Shown here in pieces: positions 48,979-55,556 of a stretch of 64,000 nt of DNA. The translations under genes and the position numbers were made by a program. Where the stretch lies: assembly GCA_965204725.1 (NCBI GenBank), contig OZ242005.1:1536001-1600000 (forward strand), read 5' to 3'. Numbering within the stretch: the first letter of the stretch is position 1; each line of letters starts with the position of its first letter. A model generated the notes under the pieces. It had not been told where the DNA came from. It made no database searches and was given only the letters and a program-made list of their open reading frames with translations. The stretch is from Candidatus Latescibacterota bacterium. Its GTDB lineage: Bacteria > Latescibacterota > UBA2968 > UBA8231.

Positions 48979-50421
48979 TCAAATGCCCAAGCGGTTTTTA
49001 TAAGGCAAAGGGCGGCCCTCCGCATCGAGTAAGGGCTGCGGCGGCGCCTTCTTTTGGGTTCGCAAGCTGACGATTACTAAGGCGAGGGCCGAAAAAGGCA
49101 CGGCCAAAAGGTCGGCCGGCAAATTCGCTGGGATCCTCTCCAGCACCTGCCAAGCACACAGGCCGACCGCTATGGAAGCTAAGGCCCCAGGGCCGTTGCT
49201 CTTGGGCCACCACAAACCAGCGGTTAGCGGGACGAACAGCGAGGCGAGGAGCACGGACCAAGAATTGACCATCAAGTCGTACACCGAAGCGGTGCGGAGG
49301 GCCAACAGTAAAGATGCCGCGCCCAACAGGAGGACGGACCAGCGCGTCAGGCGCAGCGACGACCGTTCCTCGGCATTGGGTTTGAAGTAGCGCAGGACAT
49401 CCCAGCCAATGACACTCGCTGGAGCGAGGAGGGCGCTGTCGGCGCTGGACAGGAGGGCCGAGACGAGGGCCCCCATAAAGAGGACCAAGGCTAGATCCGG
49501 GAGGTACTCTAGTGCGAGGGCCATCATAACCAGATCGGGATCGGCCAAATCTGGCAGGACGACCGCACCCGCCATACCGAGAAAAACGGGCAATAGCCCG
49601 ACCGTTATATAAAGCAGCCCAGCGAGGTACGCGCTGCGGTACGCCACCGTTTCGTCGCGGCTGGACAGACTGCGCTGGATTAGGTCTTGACCCGCTAGGT
49701 TGCCGAGGCCAATGACCAGCCAGTCGCGCGCATATACCAACCAACTGGCCGCGTCGCCGCGCGGGTAGAAATCGAAGCGGGAGGCCGGGATTGAGGTGAC
49801 GAGGGCCTCCCAGCCCCCCATGTCGCTGAGGAGGATCGGCGTCAAAATAAACAATCCCAGTACGAGGATGGTCACTTGAATGAAGTCGGTTAGCGTGACG
49901 GCCCACATGCCACCGGCCCAAGTGTAGATCAGTACAATGACTGCGGCGGCGCAGATGCCGAAGGCGGGATCGATGCCGGTCAGGCTCTGTAGAATCCGCC
50001 CAAAGGCGACCAACAGCGAGCCAACCCAGCCGATATAGGCGGGAATGGTGCAGAGGCTGGCCAGCAGGCCCGCCCGCGGGCCGAAGCGGCGGCTAAAAAA
50101 GGACGCTATTGTCATCAAGCCCATGCGCCGCATCATGCGGACGTACAAGAGACCGGCGATGAATAGGCACAAAGCCGCGCCAAAAGGGTCGGCAATGACC
50201 GCGAGGATGCCGCCTTTGTAGGCAGCACTCGCCGCGCCAATGCAGATGCCACCGCCAAACCACGTCGCAGCGAGCGTTGCAGTGCAGAGCAACAGGGGCA
50301 GGCGTTGGCCAGCGACGATGAAGTCCGTCGAGTTGTGGACTCGGCGACCAGCGTATAAGCCAACGCCAAGCATCACCGCCAGATAGACAACCAAGCCGGT
50401 CAAGACCAAGGGATTCGCCAT
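48979..50421 (-). CDS. Sodium:solute symporter
   Basis: About 13 TMs; DFIVAG, ATWFGG, GGMWAV..TD..Q, SSADS.LL. Confidence 0.92.
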   Translation of the reverse strand: MANPLVLTGLVVYLAVMLGVGLYAGRRVHNSTDFIVAGQRLPLLLCTATLAATWFGGGICIGAASAAYKGGILAVIADPFGAALCLFIAGLLYVRMMRRMGLMTIASFFSRRFGPRAGLLASLCTIPAYIGWVGSLLVAFGRILQSLTGIDPAFGICAAAVIVLIYTWAGGMWAVTLTDFIQVTILVLGLFILTPILLSDMGGWEALVTSIPASRFDFYPRGDAASWLVYARDWLVIGLGNLAGQDLIQRSLSSRDETVAYRSAYLAGLLYITVGLLPVFLGMAGAVVLPDLADPDLVMMALALEYLPDLALVLFMGALVSALLSSADSALLAPASVIGWDVLRYFKPNAEERSSLRLTRWSVLLLGAASLLLALRTASVYDLMVNSWSVLLASLFVPLTAGLWWPKSNGPGALASIAVGLCAWQVLERIPANLPADLLAVPFSALALVIVSLRTQKKAPPQPLLDAEGRPLPYKNRLGI

Positions 50422-50469
50422 GGCAAGATCCTTTTTGAAAATTTGTTATAATAACCAACAGCGTGAAAC

Positions 50470-50505
50470 TGGCCAATGACGCCAACCCAGTGGCGAATCT
50501 GGCCA
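50470..50505. promoter_or_regulatory. Tandem enhancer (UAS) sites TGGC-N7-GCCA for a sigma54 activator
   Basis: TGGCCAATGACGCCA (50470-84) and TGGCGAATCTGGCCA (50491-505), 21 bp apart and 80-115 bp upstream of the -24 box. Confidence 0.7.
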
Positions 50506-50582
50506 TTATTAAGCGATAATTCGATCTATGTTTTTCCTATAATACGATGGGCTGTAACAAATTATGGATACGATAGCACTTT

Positions 50583-50598
50583 TGGCACAGTCCTTGCA
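50583..50598 (+). promoter_or_regulatory. sigma54 (-24/-12) promoter of pspA
   Basis: TGGCACAGTCCTTGCA matches the TGGCAC-N5-TTGC(A/T) consensus. Confidence 0.9.
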
Positions 50599-50649
50599 AG
50601 TTAGAAACAACACGCGATAAGCTCCACTCAAATCCAAGGGAGGCATGCG

Positions 50650-51324
50650 ATGGCTAAAGGAGCCTTAGCGAGGATAAGCGATATCCTCAAGTCCAATATC
50701 AACGAGATGCTCGACCGAGCGGAAGAGCCAGACAAGATGATCCGCCAGATGGTGCGGGACATGGAAGAGGCGGTCGGCAAGGCCACGGCCTCGGTAGGGA
50801 CCGCTGTGGCCAACCACAAGCGGCTCGAGCGCCAGTTCAACGACAAGCAAAGCCAGATCGCCGAGTGGCAGCGCAAGGCCGAACGGGCGGTGGCAGCGGG
50901 CGAGGACGCGCTGGCGCGCCGGGCGCTGGAGCGCAAGGCGGTGTTGGCCAAAGCGGCCGAGGATTTGGCGCCGGCCTTGGAGGAGAGTCGGCAGACGGCC
51001 GAGCAGTTGCGCGAGCAGTTGCGCGAACTAAAGACCAAGCTCGAAGAAGCGCGGACCCGACAGGGCACGTTGGTCGCCCGCCACCAAGCGGCTCAGGCCC
51101 GCAAGCGTCTGGCCCAGAGCATTTCTGGATTGGGTCAGGATGCCTTTTCCAGCTTTGAACGCTTTGAGCAGAAAGTCGCAGAGAGCGAGGCCGAGGCGGC
51201 CGCGCACGTAGAGGTTTCGGGCGAGATGGAAGACGTTGAGAAAGAAATCCGCCAAATCGAGGTTGATCACAGCGTTGACGATGAATTGAAAGCGCTAAAG
51301 GACAAGATGAAAAAGGATAAGTAA
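50650..51324 (+). CDS. pspA: Phage shock protein A / IM30 (ESCRT-III-like)
   Basis: RISDILKSNINEMLDRAEEP.KM..Q, W..KAE.A...GED.LAR.AL.RK, FERFEQKV, VDDEL.ALK. Confidence 0.93.
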   Translation: MAKGALARISDILKSNINEMLDRAEEPDKMIRQMVRDMEEAVGKATASVGTAVANHKRLERQFNDKQSQIAEWQRKAERAVAAGEDALARRALERKAVLAKAAEDLAPALEESRQTAEQLREQLRELKTKLEEARTRQGTLVARHQAAQARKRLAQSISGLGQDAFSSFERFEQKVAESEAEAAAHVEVSGEMEDVEKEIRQIEVDHSVDDELKALKDKMKKDK

Positions 51325-51370
51325 TCCTTTGGTCTGCAACGCATTATGCGATATTTCTAGCAGGTGAGCT

Positions 51371-51886
51371 ATGAAATTCATCGACGAAGCCAACCTCAAG
51401 GTAAGCAGTGCTGTAGAGAGCGGGTGCAAGCGTTTAGGCGCTCTGTTTCTCAAGGTGCTGGCCGTACCGATTGTGCCAATAGGGCTGGGGCTTATGCTCT
51501 ACGGGCTTTTTCAGATGCTTAGGCCCTCCGCTTCAGACCACCCCTCTTTCGAACTCTTCGCCGTTGGCGTCACGCAGGTCATCTTCGGCAGCTTGCTCTG
51601 GCTATTGGCCAAAAAACTCGATGCGGCCGCGCACCTGCTACGCTACCGGCGGCAGCAAAACCGCGTCGTGCGTTTGGCTAGGCAGCGCGGTGGCCGCCTG
51701 ACGGCGACCGAAACGGCGGCCGATACCGGGCTGACGGTTGAGGAAGCCGCGGAGATTCTCAAGCGTTTGGCCGACGGAGGGTTTGTCGAGGTCGAAATAA
51801 CCGATTCGGGCCTTATTGTCTATCGCTTTCCAGAAGTGCTTTTCGCGCACGAAAAACGCTGGAGCCGGGGCGTCGAAAGCGCCTGA
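51371..51886 (+). CDS. 2-TM membrane protein with C-terminal winged-helix-like domain
   Basis: Two TMs, then RGGRLT.TE.A..TGL.VEEA..IL..L...TDSG.IVYRFP. Confidence 0.75.
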   Translation: MKFIDEANLKVSSAVESGCKRLGALFLKVLAVPIVPIGLGLMLYGLFQMLRPSASDHPSFELFAVGVTQVIFGSLLWLLAKKLDAAAHLLRYRRQQNRVVRLARQRGGRLTATETAADTGLTVEEAAEILKRLADGGFVEVEITDSGLIVYRFPEVLFAHEKRWSRGVESA

Positions 51887-51959
51887 GTCCGTGCCATCCG
51901 CGCTCACGGCTGGCGCGGACTCAGATCGACCGGATTGAGGCGAGGGAAAGGAGCTAATC

Positions 51960-52334
51960 ATGGATAAGAATAAGGGGATCATCTTTGGGGTCTTTATTGG
52001 TATCGCGTTGTGCGTACTTTTTTACGTTGCGTTTGCCAGCTATCCTGTTGGTCGTCTGATGGGGCCTGTCATTCTGACGCTGTCCTTAGGGGCTGTGGCT
52101 ATTTTTCTCTTGTTGGCGGTCGTAGCTATTTTTGCTATCGCCAAAAAGGCAACCGTATCCGAGGATAAGGGTATTGAGCGAGACGAACTGCGAGAGCGAT
52201 TGGTCGCAGTTGAGCAGCGGCTGACGGAGGTGCAGGACGTGATGATCGTCCTTAGCGAAAAGATCGACCGGATGGAGGGAGCCGGAGCTGAGCCGTGGAG
52301 TGCCAAGAACGACGAGATCAAGGCTAGCCCGTGA
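51960..52334 (+). CDS. 2-TM membrane protein with PspB-like coiled-coil tail
   Basis: Two TMs followed by ELRERL.AVEQRL..VQ; RBS AAGGAG. Confidence 0.7.
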   Translation: MDKNKGIIFGVFIGIALCVLFYVAFASYPVGRLMGPVILTLSLGAVAIFLLLAVVAIFAIAKKATVSEDKGIERDELRERLVAVEQRLTEVQDVMIVLSEKIDRMEGAGAEPWSAKNDEIKASP

Positions 52335-53686
52335 ATTGGCGCGACCACGCTGTACAGGCTTGTGAAGATGCGCGTTGGGCCGAGGCGTTGGAGTGGTGCG
52401 AGCGCGGCCTAGCCGAGGTGCCCGACGACTTGGAGCTTTGGCACTGCAAAGGGCGTTGTCTCTTGGAACTGGGGGACGAGCAAGCGGCCGTCGCCGCGCT
52501 GGAAGCGGCTGCGGCGGGCGGACATCTAGCAAGCCATTACCAACTCGGCTTACTCGCAATGCGCCAAGGGCGGCGGAATGCCCGGTTCCGCGAGCGGTCC
52601 CTGACGCACTTTGAGGCCATTGTGTGCGCGGCCGAAAAAGGGCGCGAATACCCCGACCTCGACCGCGTCTTTTTCGCGCTCGGCAGCCAGTACGGCGAAG
52701 ATCCGCAGCGGCGCGGAGAAGCCATCCGAGCGTACCGCCAAGGATTGGCACTCAACCCGCTCTCCGCTGTTGGCCACAACAGCTTGGGCCAGCTCTTGCT
52801 GCAAAGCGGTCAGGTGCTGGGGGCGATGGGGGAGTTCAAGGTCGCCATCCAACTCGACCCCAAGCTCAGTCAGCCATACGCAAATTTGTCCCGTTTGTTT
52901 TTTTCCCACGTAAAACTCTCTGAATTAGAACAAGAATACCAGCATATCTGCGAGGAATTCGCGCAAAGTGCTCCGCAAGTTCTCGCGCGTTTGTCGCTGG
53001 CAATGGTTGAGTTGGGCAAAGAGCAGGTGTACGAAGGGTTTTACACCAAGGGACATCGCATCAAAAACCTGATGGGGATCATCGGCAGCCGCTTGCGGGG
53101 ACTGGGACGCAAGGCCGCAGGCGAGCAGCAGGGGGAGTTGAATCGCTTAGGAGGCGAATACGAGGCCCTGTACGACGAATGGGTGGGGTTCTTAGAAGCG
53201 ATGAAAACGGATAAAATTTTCCCGGCGGTGACCGATCTCGGGCGCTTGGTGCGCCGGGTGGCGGCCGGATTGGACCGCCAAACGTGGAAATCCGCGATTC
53301 AGACGCGGGTCCAAGCGGGCTTGCCGCGCGTGGAAGCCGACGAGCGGATGTTGCGCGAGGCTATTACGAACCTCTGCCTCAACGCGCTGGAAACTCTCGA
53401 AGAAGGACCGGGCGGCCGGGTGGTGCTGGGCACTGGCTACGACGAGGAGCAGTCGCTGGCCTTTATAGAGGTCGAGGACGACGGGCCGGGCATTGAGGAA
53501 GAGCATTTGGAATTGATATTCGAGCCTGGATTTACCACCAGAGAGCGGGGCAATGGCTATGGCTTGAGCATTGCGCGCCGCATCGCCCAAGCCCATCAAG
53601 GCATATTGCGCGTCAAGAGCAGAAAGGGACATGGAACCGTTTTTCGGCTCGATCTGCCGCTCAATTTCGCGGGCGGTGCGCCCTAG
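52331..53686 (+). CDS. Cytoplasmic TPR-sensor histidine kinase
   Basis: N-terminal TPRs, no TM. H-box GHRIKNLM, N-box NLCLNA, G1 DDGPGI, F FEPGFTT, G2 GNGYGL. Confidence 0.9.
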   Translation: MNWRDHAVQACEDARWAEALEWCERGLAEVPDDLELWHCKGRCLLELGDEQAAVAALEAAAAGGHLASHYQLGLLAMRQGRRNARFRERSLTHFEAIVCAAEKGREYPDLDRVFFALGSQYGEDPQRRGEAIRAYRQGLALNPLSAVGHNSLGQLLLQSGQVLGAMGEFKVAIQLDPKLSQPYANLSRLFFSHVKLSELEQEYQHICEEFAQSAPQVLARLSLAMVELGKEQVYEGFYTKGHRIKNLMGIIGSRLRGLGRKAAGEQQGELNRLGGEYEALYDEWVGFLEAMKTDKIFPAVTDLGRLVRRVAAGLDRQTWKSAIQTRVQAGLPRVEADERMLREAITNLCLNALETLEEGPGGRVVLGTGYDEEQSLAFIEVEDDGPGIEEEHLELIFEPGFTTRERGNGYGLSIARRIAQAHQGILRVKSRKGHGTVFRLDLPLNFAGGAP

Positions 53687-53721
53687 CCTTTCAGGGGTCA
53701 GGGGTTAAATGGAGGACGGGC

Positions 53722-55140
53722 ATGAAAAGTAAAAAACAGAAGTCGGTCTTAATCGCCGATGACCAGCGGGAATTGCGCGATATGTTGGGGGAGAAACTGC
53801 GCAGCTTGGGCAAGGAAGTCATCTCGTTTTCCAACGGCCAGCGGTTGCTCGGGCATTTAGCAGCTAGGCCAACGGATGTCGAGCTTGTGGTGCTCGATTT
53901 GGACTTTGGCGTTGGCCAGCCCAATGGCCTCGAAGTGCTGAAAGAGATCAAAAAGCACTGGGCCGAGTTGCCCGTTATTATTCTCACCGGCAAGGGAAGC
54001 ATTGACTTGGCGGTCGAAGCCGTGCAGGCCGGGGCGGCCGACTTTATCGAGAAGGACTTGTACGTTGAAGACAAGCTCGAAGTGGAAATGGAAAAGGTCG
54101 AGCGGATGCTGGTGGTATTGCGCGAAAATGCCCGTCTCAAGGCCGAGAACGAGGCCCTAGACCGCGATAACACCTTTTATCGGACCCAGCTAGGCCAGCG
54201 CTATCAGATCGTCAGTTCCAGTCCCCTGATTCAGAACCTACTAGAGCAAGTTGAACAGATCGCCTCCATACCGAGGCCGGTGTTGATCCGCGGCGAGCGC
54301 GGCACTGGCAAGGAGTTGATCGCCGCGGCCTTGCACTACGGGAGCAATCGCCGCGCACGGGCCTTTGTCAAGACCAACTGCGCGGCGCTGTCGGATACCC
54401 TACTCGAAAGCGAGCTGTTTGGCCACGAAAAGGGGGCCTTTACGGGCGCGAACCAAATGCGCCACGGTCGCTTTGAAGCGGCCGATGGCGGGACGCTTTT
54501 TCTCGACGAGATCGGCAACACGTCACTGGAATTCCAAAAAAATGTATTGCGCGTCATAGAATACCAAGAATTTGAACGCATCGGCGGGAGCCAGACGATC
54601 CGCGTTGACGTGCGCGTCGTGGCAGCGACCAACGCGGATCTGGAGGGGGAAATAGCCAGCGGGCAATTCCGCGCCGACCTCTACGACCGCCTGCGGTTTA
54701 GCGTCCTCCAACTGCCCCCCTTGCGGGAGCGGCCCGAGGACATCCGGCCCTTGGTGGCGTACTTTACTCAGCAGCTATGCGACGAAGTTCCGGCGATTGA
54801 ACGACGCTCGTTCGCCAAAGACGTTTTGGCCAAGCTAGAGACCTACGCTTGGCCGGGGAATGTGCGCGAGCTCAAATTCGCGGTCGAGCGCGCCCTCTGC
54901 GTGGCGCAAGGGAGCGAAGTGGTCGTGGAGGACTTGCCCCCGGAAGTGCGCGGCGGCCGGGGCGTCGTCCTTTCTGAAGGAGGCCGTTTCGACGAGCAAG
55001 TCGCGCACGTTGAGCGAGGATTGCTCGATGGCGCACTGGCGCAGGCGGGCGGGCGGCAGAAAGACGCGGCCCAGCAATTGGGCTTGACCTACGACCGCTT
55101 TCGGCACTTGCTCCGCAAATACCAAATCACGACCAAATGA
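53722..55140 (+). CDS. sigma54-dependent response regulator: REC + PspF-like AAA+ + HTH
   Basis: REC with ADD...VVLDL...LTG...FIEK. GERGTGKELIA, GAFTGA, LRVIEY, RADLYDRL and QKDAAQQLGLTY..FR.LL.K are PspF-type signatures. Confidence 0.9.
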   Translation: MKSKKQKSVLIADDQRELRDMLGEKLRSLGKEVISFSNGQRLLGHLAARPTDVELVVLDLDFGVGQPNGLEVLKEIKKHWAELPVIILTGKGSIDLAVEAVQAGAADFIEKDLYVEDKLEVEMEKVERMLVVLRENARLKAENEALDRDNTFYRTQLGQRYQIVSSSPLIQNLLEQVEQIASIPRPVLIRGERGTGKELIAAALHYGSNRRARAFVKTNCAALSDTLLESELFGHEKGAFTGANQMRHGRFEAADGGTLFLDEIGNTSLEFQKNVLRVIEYQEFERIGGSQTIRVDVRVVAATNADLEGEIASGQFRADLYDRLRFSVLQLPPLRERPEDIRPLVAYFTQQLCDEVPAIERRSFAKDVLAKLETYAWPGNVRELKFAVERALCVAQGSEVVVEDLPPEVRGGRGVVLSEGGRFDEQVAHVERGLLDGALAQAGGRQKDAAQQLGLTYDRFRHLLRKYQITTK

Positions 55141-55232
55141 CCTGCCGCGTCCTCTGGGCCGAGCCTTATTGACAGTGGGAACGCGCCGGGTATATTAACC
55201 GCAGGCGCAGGCTCCCACCCGGGCGAGAGGGC

Positions 55233-55556
55233 ATGGAAAAAGTTTACAAAGTCGAAACCACACTTTCTCACAGCTTGGCCGAACTCTATGCTAGCCTCGA
55301 AGAAGAGTTCGCCAAGAAGAGCAGCATCCCCCTCTCGGACATGAACCGCACGTTGTTGCAAACGGGCTTAATCCACCATCTGACGATGATGAGCGGGTTG
55401 GGGCTGATCGAGCCGGAGAAGGCCGCTAGGCTGCATGCGTTGATCGACCAAGTAGCCAAGGATACCATACTCTATGACCTCTTGCAGATGGTGCGGACCT
55501 ACTGGCGGGATTGCGGTTCGGGTGGTCCGGGCGGCTCCGGCGGCCTCAACGCTTGA
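55233..55556 (+). CDS. Hypothetical protein (possible ribbon-helix-helix-like)
   Basis: 107-aa ORF with RBS GAGAGG, preceded by TTGACA-16-TATATT (55169-96). Confidence 0.65.
   Translation: MEKVYKVETTLSHSLAELYASLEEEFAKKSSIPLSDMNRTLLQTGLIHHLTMMSGLGLIEPEKAARLHALIDQVAKDTILYDLLQMVRTYWRDCGSGGPGGSGGLNA

Follow-up and report, generated by a model that had tools for sequence, protein, structure and literature searches.

We analysed a 64,000-nt window from the genome of a Candidatus Latescibacterota bacterium (GCA_965204725.1, OZ242005.1, positions 1,536,001-1,600,000 of the forward strand). Its pspA operon also encodes a soluble histidine kinase with tetratricopeptide repeats (TPR) and a regulator that joins a receiver domain (REC) to AAA+ and helix-turn-helix (HTH) domains like those of PspF. 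PspF is the textbook sigma54 activator, which has no sensory domain and is controlled in trans by PspA. In the operon described here, a sigma54-dependent pspA gene is most likely controlled by its own two-component system, with phosphorylation replacing the docking of PspA on the AAA+ domain. The evidence is computational and comprises the gene set, a conserved promoter with upstream dyads, the phylogeny of the regulator, intact key residues in both signalling proteins, loss of the docking patch and linkage to pspA in two phyla.

The pspA operon and its genes

Every feature of the region 50470-55140 was read on the + strand, including five co-directional open reading frames (ORFs) that are separated, in order, by 46, 73, -4 and 35 nt. 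Coordinates are positions within the window unless otherwise marked. An earlier sequence-only reading had listed two dyads, a sigma54 promoter, pspA, two membrane genes, a kinase and an activator here, and each was found at its coordinates:

50470-50484, no strand assigned: upstream dyad 1, TGGC-N7-GCCA, TGGCCAATGACGCCA; predicted activator binding site
50491-50505, no strand assigned: upstream dyad 2, TGGC-N7-GCCA, TGGCGAATCTGGCCA; 21 bp from dyad 1
50583-50598, + strand: predicted sigma54 (-24/-12) promoter, TGGCAC-N5-TTGCA, TGGCACagtccTTGCA; ~50 bp before the pspA start codon
50650-51324, + strand: pspA, PspA/IM30, 224 aa; PF04012, 158.3 bits
51371-51886, + strand: 171-aa membrane protein with two transmembrane (TM) segments; no Pfam or NCBIfam family
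51960-52334, + strand: 124-aa small membrane protein with an RLTxxQ motif; no Pfam or NCBIfam family
52331-53686, + strand: 451-aa soluble TPR histidine kinase; TPR models and HATPase_c (Pfam)
53722-55140, + strand: 472-aa REC-AAA+-HTH sigma54 activator ("REC-PspF"); Response_reg, Sigma54_activat, AAA_lid_14 and HTH_8 (Pfam)

No terminator-like site was predicted between the pspA and regulator genes. An attenuator after pspA was considered and rejected: a 7-bp hairpin lies at the stop codon, but its fold is no better than that of shuffled sequences (z -1.24).

Phylogenetic placement of the regulator

The regulator has the architecture of an NtrC-family response regulator, with a REC domain that carries a phospho-acceptor Asp (Response_reg at residues 9-114, Pfam, E 3e-19), an AAA+ domain in which alignment reveals the GAFTGA motif, and a Fis-type HTH. 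Its top NCBIfam model is PspF (TIGR02974, 367.2 bits), and PspF is also the best PDB match of the AAA+ domain alone. Residues 173-469 align with residues 18-325 of E. coli PspF at 49% identity, through a nearly identical HTH. The motifs GERGTGKEL, LRVIEY, ATNADL, DL.DRL.F and RELK are common to both proteins, and the PspF-type signatures quoted in the sequence-only reading can be seen in an alignment of the two.

We placed the AAA+ domain in three trees. In a 39-row IQ-TREE phylogeny, built from the complete E. coli set of 13 sigma54 activators, 15 activators of this genome and 11 orthologues, the regulator clade is sister to E. coli PspF (support 100/99). Rows were added from the best 150 matches among 1.84 billion proteins, of which 120 single-domain representatives were used and multi-domain and short matches were dropped. 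The resulting 159-row FastTree contained a PspF superclade of 45 rows (SH support 100). An 84-row IQ-TREE recovered this superclade at 100/100, with a REC-less branch of 14 rows (100/99) and a second branch of 30 rows (97/72) that holds the window regulator. Most members of the second branch have an N-terminal extension of ~140-155 residues, and Response_reg was present in 9/9 of the long members tested (Pfam). The 14 further sigma54 activators from this genome that the trees include all fall outside the PspF clade.

The sequence-only reading had named grouping with generic NtrC proteins as one outcome that would speak against it, and the AAA+ domain grouped with PspF in all three trees. Judged by phylogeny, this domain is of the PspF lineage and not of the generic NtrC type. 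We nevertheless set the protein apart from canonical PspF because, while its AAA+ lineage agrees, it differs in three features: it has an N-terminal domain, it lacks the Y51-L52-W56 patch and it falls below the equivalog cut-off. By tree position and domain content, the regulator is a REC-bearing sister lineage of PspF with its own TPR kinase.

Receiver domain and PspA-docking patch

According to Zhang et al. (PMC3791423), PspA docks on PspF at residues Y51, L52 and W56. The motif [YF]-L-S-x-R-W does not vary within the REC-less branch, with W56 in 14/14 and L52 in 14/14 members. In the second, mostly REC-bearing branch, W is found in 0/31 and L in 4/31. The window regulator reads Y-G-S-N-R-R (HYGSNRR) where E. 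coli PspF has HYLSSRW; the argument from the lost Trp, raised at first for this one protein, holds for the whole branch. The receiver, earlier described as intact-looking, retains its acidic pair, Asp59, Thr/Ser and Lys in 35/35 Latescibacterota and Myxococcota-type orthologues. At the level of aligned residues, the PspF superclade shows a clean either/or: a protein has the receiver or the PspA-docking patch.

Separately, eight other members of the REC-bearing branch (P0009, P0014, P0026, P0024, P0032, P0022, P0049 and P0038) have degenerate receivers in which the acidic pair and/or the Asp is missing. These may be pseudo-receivers.

A soluble TPR histidine kinase

The kinase consists of N-terminal TPR repeats, a divergent dimerization and histidine phosphotransfer (DHp) domain and HATPase_c (80 bits, Pfam). 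No 19-aa window reaches a Kyte-Doolittle hydrophobicity of >=1.6, in agreement with the initial description of the protein as TM-less. The predicted phospho-acceptor, His242, lies in the H-box GHRIKNLMG, and the DHp domain was assigned because this box is conserved. Among the 32 kinase orthologues, H242, N347, N351, D383, G385 and G387 (H, N and G boxes) are invariant (32/32), HATPase_c is always present (32/32) and a hydrophobic segment is absent from 31. Pfam TPR models match 22/32 orthologues, comprising 22/22 from Latescibacterota and 0/10 of the Ala-rich Myxococcota-type proteins. By NCBIfam, the nearest matches of the catalytic half are AtoS and ZraS.

Conservation across Latescibacterota

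We sampled loci by a kinase-alignment search, taking one genome per species, and obtained 35 loci with a full-length match of this type, labelled Latescibacterota or Gemmatimonadetes. The genes for PspA, the 171-aa protein, the kinase and the regulator are co-directional and in the same order in all 34 loci whose flanks were long enough; the remaining one, on a 2.8-kb contig, is too short to judge order. Operon, promoter and dyads are conserved over three Latescibacterota families. A regulator orthologue (E <=1e-125) is encoded in 99/168 Latescibacterota genomes, all in these three families: 49/75 genomes of family f1, 21/22 of f4 and 28/31 of f2, with 0/39 in the other eleven families.

Families f2 and f4 carry an extra gene block between the small membrane genes and the kinase gene. 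In one such locus (L013, 6703-9562) the block encodes an ECF-type sigma factor, an unassigned membrane protein of 201 aa and a Band_7 (flotillin-like) protein of 520 aa. Downstream of the regulator gene in the window, a 107-aa ORF without a family (55233-55556, +) has a near-consensus sigma70-like promoter at 55169-55196. This ORF is kept 3' of the regulator gene solely in family f1 and probably forms a unit of its own. Thirteen public sequencing runs contain at least half of the sampled words of the stretch 50400-55200; the uncoded labels among them are sponge or marine metagenome, and the others are coded organism names.

A second version of the system in Myxococcota

One cluster of the REC-bearing branch consists of proteins from Kofleriaceae metagenome-assembled genomes, some named at source "psp operon transcriptional activator PspF". 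When 8 candidates per genome were scored, 2/201 sampled Myxococcota genomes had the REC-PspF type, and in both the kinase gene comes first, then the regulator gene and then pspA. A further 28 contigs of this type came from a metagenome scan. Across the judgeable Myxococcota-type loci, the regulator gene follows the kinase gene in 25/26, and pspA follows the regulator gene in 14/14, within 150 nt in 12/14. Linkage to pspA, which the sequence-only reading had proposed to survey and whose lack it had also named as a refutation, is conserved in 34/34 Latescibacterota and in 14/14 judgeable Myxococcota-type loci.

The Myxococcota-type regulator is ~49% identical to the window regulator. Its kinase shares 32% identity with the window kinase over 377 aa, a span that includes the TPR-like core (residues ~85-215), the H-box GHR[IV]KN and the ATP-binding boxes. 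Neither of the window's membrane proteins was found in Myxococcota-type loci, and because they are missing from this version they are not core to the system. The conserved core is instead kinase, REC-PspF and PspA, because this trio recurs in both phyla. In Myxococcota-type loci (L149 3687-4085 and L169 6862-7281) a conserved 132-139-aa ORF without a Pfam family directly follows pspA and overlaps its stop codon.

Upstream dyads and the sigma54 promoter

The window contains 8 occurrences of the pattern TGGC-N7-GCCA where 2.3 are expected, a count reached in 0/100 shuffles. Two of the eight are the tandem pair at 50470 and 50491, which an A+T-rich spacer separates from the sigma54 element. Such a tandem is found at 2 places in the whole 5.43-Mb genome, while a reversed control pattern is found at 0. 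We rejected the other place as a real site: it is probably a chance occurrence, because it lies within an aldo/keto reductase gene and has no sigma54 element nearby. The element at 50583-50598 is the sole perfect sigma54 match in the window, where the pattern itself shows no enrichment (3 sites with <=1 mismatch vs 2.1 expected). The genome encodes rpoN (sigma54).

Both elements are conserved. The sequence GG[CT]A[CT]-N5-T[TC]GC is present 5' of pspA in 35/35 Latescibacterota loci. A tandem TGGY-N7-RCCA pair, allowing <=1 mismatch per dyad and a distance of 20-23 bp, precedes pspA in 26/35 loci vs 3/7000 shuffled controls. Across relatives the half-sites are kept while the 7-nt spacers vary, as expected for a protein-binding site.

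The E. coli pspA promoter has two upstream activating sequences for PspF and is assisted by integration host factor (IHF) (PMC3709507). Within the E. coli pspF-pspA spacer we found two elements that fit TGGY-N7-RCCA, one with 2 mismatches (computed) and the other with 1 mismatch (read by eye). They lie 20 bp apart, ~85-125 bp before the sigma54 promoter, and one has TGGCGAAT in common with dyad 2 of the window. This likeness is only suggestive, because a comparable pair arises in 68/2000 shuffles of the E. coli spacer. A candidate IHF site between dyads and promoter in the window (50558-50570, 1 mismatch) was rejected, as such matches are not enriched (41 vs 33 expected in the window).

A weak sigma70-like promoter on the - strand (50448-50476), which would serve a divergent sodium:solute symporter gene (48979-50421, -), overlaps dyad 1. 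Because of this overlap, found by a consensus scan, the regulator could also affect the symporter gene. The arrangement is reminiscent of E. coli PspF, which represses its own divergent promoter.

PspA and the two small membrane proteins

The window PspA matches PF04012 over residues 6-219 with a score far above the gathering score of 33.9, and shares 33% identity with E. coli PspA along its entire length (E 1e-35). It scores under the TIGR02977 equivalog cut-off (155 vs 243).

The 171-aa protein has hydrophobic (TM) segments at residues 25-43 and 62-80 and a C-terminal domain that resembles a winged helix, all matches being weak and sub-threshold. Its best PDB match, a designed TIM barrel reached via a repeated short segment, was regarded as spurious. 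The gene is present in 34/34 Latescibacterota genome loci and, judged from this distribution, is an accessory specific to the Latescibacterota version. The 124-aa protein has hydrophobic (TM) segments at residues 7-25 and 43-61, and its gene overlaps the kinase start by 4 nt at the stop codon. In its family, one or more TM segments are followed by a helix with an invariant R-L-T-x-x-Q motif; 49 such ORFs were found in 30/35 sources, at 0-3 copies per locus. The closest relatives have two RLT..Q membrane genes (L022 9281-9997) where the window has one (compared at 51886-51960).

Neither ORF matched a Pfam or NCBIfam family (Pfam, E <=0.01). An identity with PspB or PspC was rejected, as there was no match to PF06667 (PspB) or to the PspC model at E <=0.01. 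One relative gave a PspB match at E 0.022, and a profile comparison of the small membrane protein with E. coli PspB returned a probability of 9%. The sequence-only reading had called both genes non-canonical, and these results bear it out.

The genome encodes two further PspA paralogues. One lies ~45 kb past the window end (G000:C1:1645594-1646283; L121 1083-2205; PF04012, 150 bits) and is preceded by a 130-aa CesT_Tir_1/YbjN-like gene, a neighbour that is among the known PspA contexts listed in PMC11237479. The other (G000:C1:2587871-2588518; L122; 97 bits) has a GGTAC-N5-TTTGC sequence ~260 nt 5' of its likely start that may be another sigma54 promoter; a genome-wide pattern scan found no tandem dyads there.

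Proposed mechanism and alternatives

We propose that the soluble TPR kinase would autophosphorylate on His242 and pass the phosphate to Asp59 of the regulator. The phosphorylated activator would then assemble on the two TGGC-N7-GCCA dyads, ~110-130 bp upstream, and remodel sigma54-RNA polymerase at TGGCAC-N5-TTGCA. Transcription would cover pspA and the two small membrane genes, with read-through to the kinase and regulator genes, so that the system probably autoregulates. Control would thus be exerted in cis by the receiver domain, rather than in trans by PspA docking on Y51-L52-W56 as in E. coli. As the input to the kinase our preferred guess, offered tentatively and at somewhat less than even chances, is the free PspA pool acting on the TPR domain. 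PspA is favoured because it alone co-occurs with the kinase in both phyla.

Several results weigh against this scheme. The regulator scores below the TIGR02974 cut-off of 443.55 and only ~5 bits above AtoC, with NtrC close, and the bootstrap for the REC-bearing branch had not fully converged. Pfam HisKA was not detected in the kinase. A clean dyad pair is missing from 9/35 Latescibacterota loci by the mismatch and spacing limits given above. No sigma54 promoter was found for the Myxococcota-type version, with <=1 mismatch anywhere (10 loci) or with <=2 mismatches near gene starts. No sigma70-like promoter was predicted on the + strand for the kinase and regulator genes, and none of the public sequencing runs found to hold the stretch 50400-55200 is an RNA run.

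If the close AtoC and NtrC scores were taken at face value, together with a domain architecture shared by any NtrC-family regulator, this would be an ordinary NtrC-type two-component system that merely adjoins pspA and regulates something else. We regard this as extremely unlikely: the AAA+ domain is placed within the PspF clade with 100/100 support, linkage is kept in two phyla with differing gene orders, and the conserved dyads and sigma54 promoter lie directly 5' of pspA, the dyad pair being near-unique in the genome. Very unlikely, too, is a pseudo-receiver with a kinase that is not its partner, the regulator being constitutive or controlled by protein-protein contacts. The eight degenerate receivers elsewhere in the branch lend this idea some substance, but the receiver residues are all kept in the 35 Latescibacterota and Myxococcota-type orthologues, and a kinase with an invariant His is always adjacent. 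A form of dual control, in which the receiver gates assembly while PspA still inhibits directly via a surface other than W56 and classical negative feedback persists, is less far-fetched, though we think it unlikely. It would fit the shared operon of pspA and regulator in both phyla, with pspA starting within 150 nt of the regulator stop in 12/14 Myxococcota-type loci, and PspF has been suggested to have a second site that binds PspA (PMC6003685). However, the primary docking patch is gone in 31/31 branch members, and we saw no sequence hint of an alternative PspA site.

The remaining alternative concerns the signal. TPR domains commonly bind short helices or peptides, and the kinase might read the cytoplasmic parts of the membrane proteins, be it the domain resembling a winged helix or the RLT..Q helix, or else a different ligand in the cytoplasm, leaving PspA as output only. 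Both families are conserved beside pspA in Latescibacterota and have strongly conserved cytoplasmic motifs. Neither protein was found in Myxococcota-type loci, which keep the TPR-like core of the kinase, and the small proteins vary between 0 and 3 copies per locus. We consider this reading possible, on the doubtful side.

The sequence-only reading had envelope-stress control moved from PspA sequestration to phosphorylation, in a rewired operon. Two-component control and the loss of the docking patch are supported by our results. The words "moved" and "rewired", however, presume a direction, and the REC form may be older than canonical PspF, in which case "rewired" is possibly the wrong way round. 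A receiver-bearing ancestor, with receiver loss in canonical PspF, is mildly favoured by parsimony because the two branches are sisters and most outgroup activators have N-terminal domains. A bolder proposal combines two ideas: that PspA is the ligand of the TPR kinase, with free PspA holding the kinase off and membrane damage titrating PspA, and that canonical PspF arose by loss of the receiver and gain of a new Y-L-W patch. We put this joint proposal forward as speculation that may well prove wrong. If true, the textbook E. coli circuit would be a derived, short-circuited form.

Significance

PspA has been proposed to functionally mimic a cis-acting regulatory domain (Zhang et al., PMC3791423). 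The locus and its relatives would be a natural counterpart of this idea, as a sister lineage of PspF that has a real receiver and kinase and is still linked to pspA. They offer an evolutionary route, open to testing, that joins cis with trans control in an AAA+ activator, and point to a possible origin of the textbook E. coli system. The soluble kinase is a candidate cytoplasmic reader of membrane stress. The effector gene, pspA, is a membrane-repair gene for a bacterial ESCRT-III-like protein, here in an uncultured marine bacterium, and the locus provides an initial entry point to envelope-stress signalling in Latescibacterota, a phylum that is uncultured.

The available portions of reviews and surveys treat PspF as lacking a sensory domain, and in them two-component control of PspA is described only for Lia-type and actinobacterial systems (PMC11237479, PMC9239133, PMC3041696, PMC4641369, PMC3162934). 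Our literature search turned up no account of a PspF that bears a REC domain or of pspA accompanied by a TPR kinase, although such neighbourhoods might be listed in Tables S3/S4 and the web app of PMC11237479 and in the external data of PMC9239133. This agrees with the earlier impression that the architecture is uncharacterised.

Comparison with known systems

The closest likeness is to the PspF-PspABC system of E. coli and Yersinia. Both have a sigma54 promoter with two upstream activator sites before pspA, predicted in the present case, and their activators share one lineage of AAA+ and HTH domains (49% identity). The Latescibacterota system differs in its N-terminal receiver, its dedicated kinase and its lack of the Y-L-W docking patch. 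Its activator gene lies downstream in the same operon instead of being divergent, and PspB and PspC were not detected.

In Bacillus, the LiaFSR-LiaIH system induces a PspA homologue through a dedicated two-component system, with small membrane proteins alongside (PMC9239133, PMC11237479), a combination that probably recurs here. LiaS is membrane-bound and has a HAMP domain, and LiaR joins a receiver to a winged HTH and is not a sigma54 activator (PMC9239133, PMC11237479). In contrast, the system described here has a soluble kinase that carries TPR repeats and a regulator of the AAA+ sigma54-activator type.

Beyond Gammaproteobacteria, a psp operon under PspF-type control has a precedent in Desulfovibrio vulgaris, where DVU2989 (PspF), encoded with DVU2988-2986, is reported to be a single-component activator without an N-terminal domain (PMC4641369); the window regulator differs from it in having one. 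With NtrB-NtrC, ZraS-ZraR and AtoS-AtoC, the system shares a REC-AAA+-HTH_8 regulator and a kinase whose catalytic half is closest to AtoS and ZraS. Unlike in those pairs, the AAA+ domain lies outside their clades, the predicted sensor is a cytoplasmic TPR array and the predicted output is pspA.

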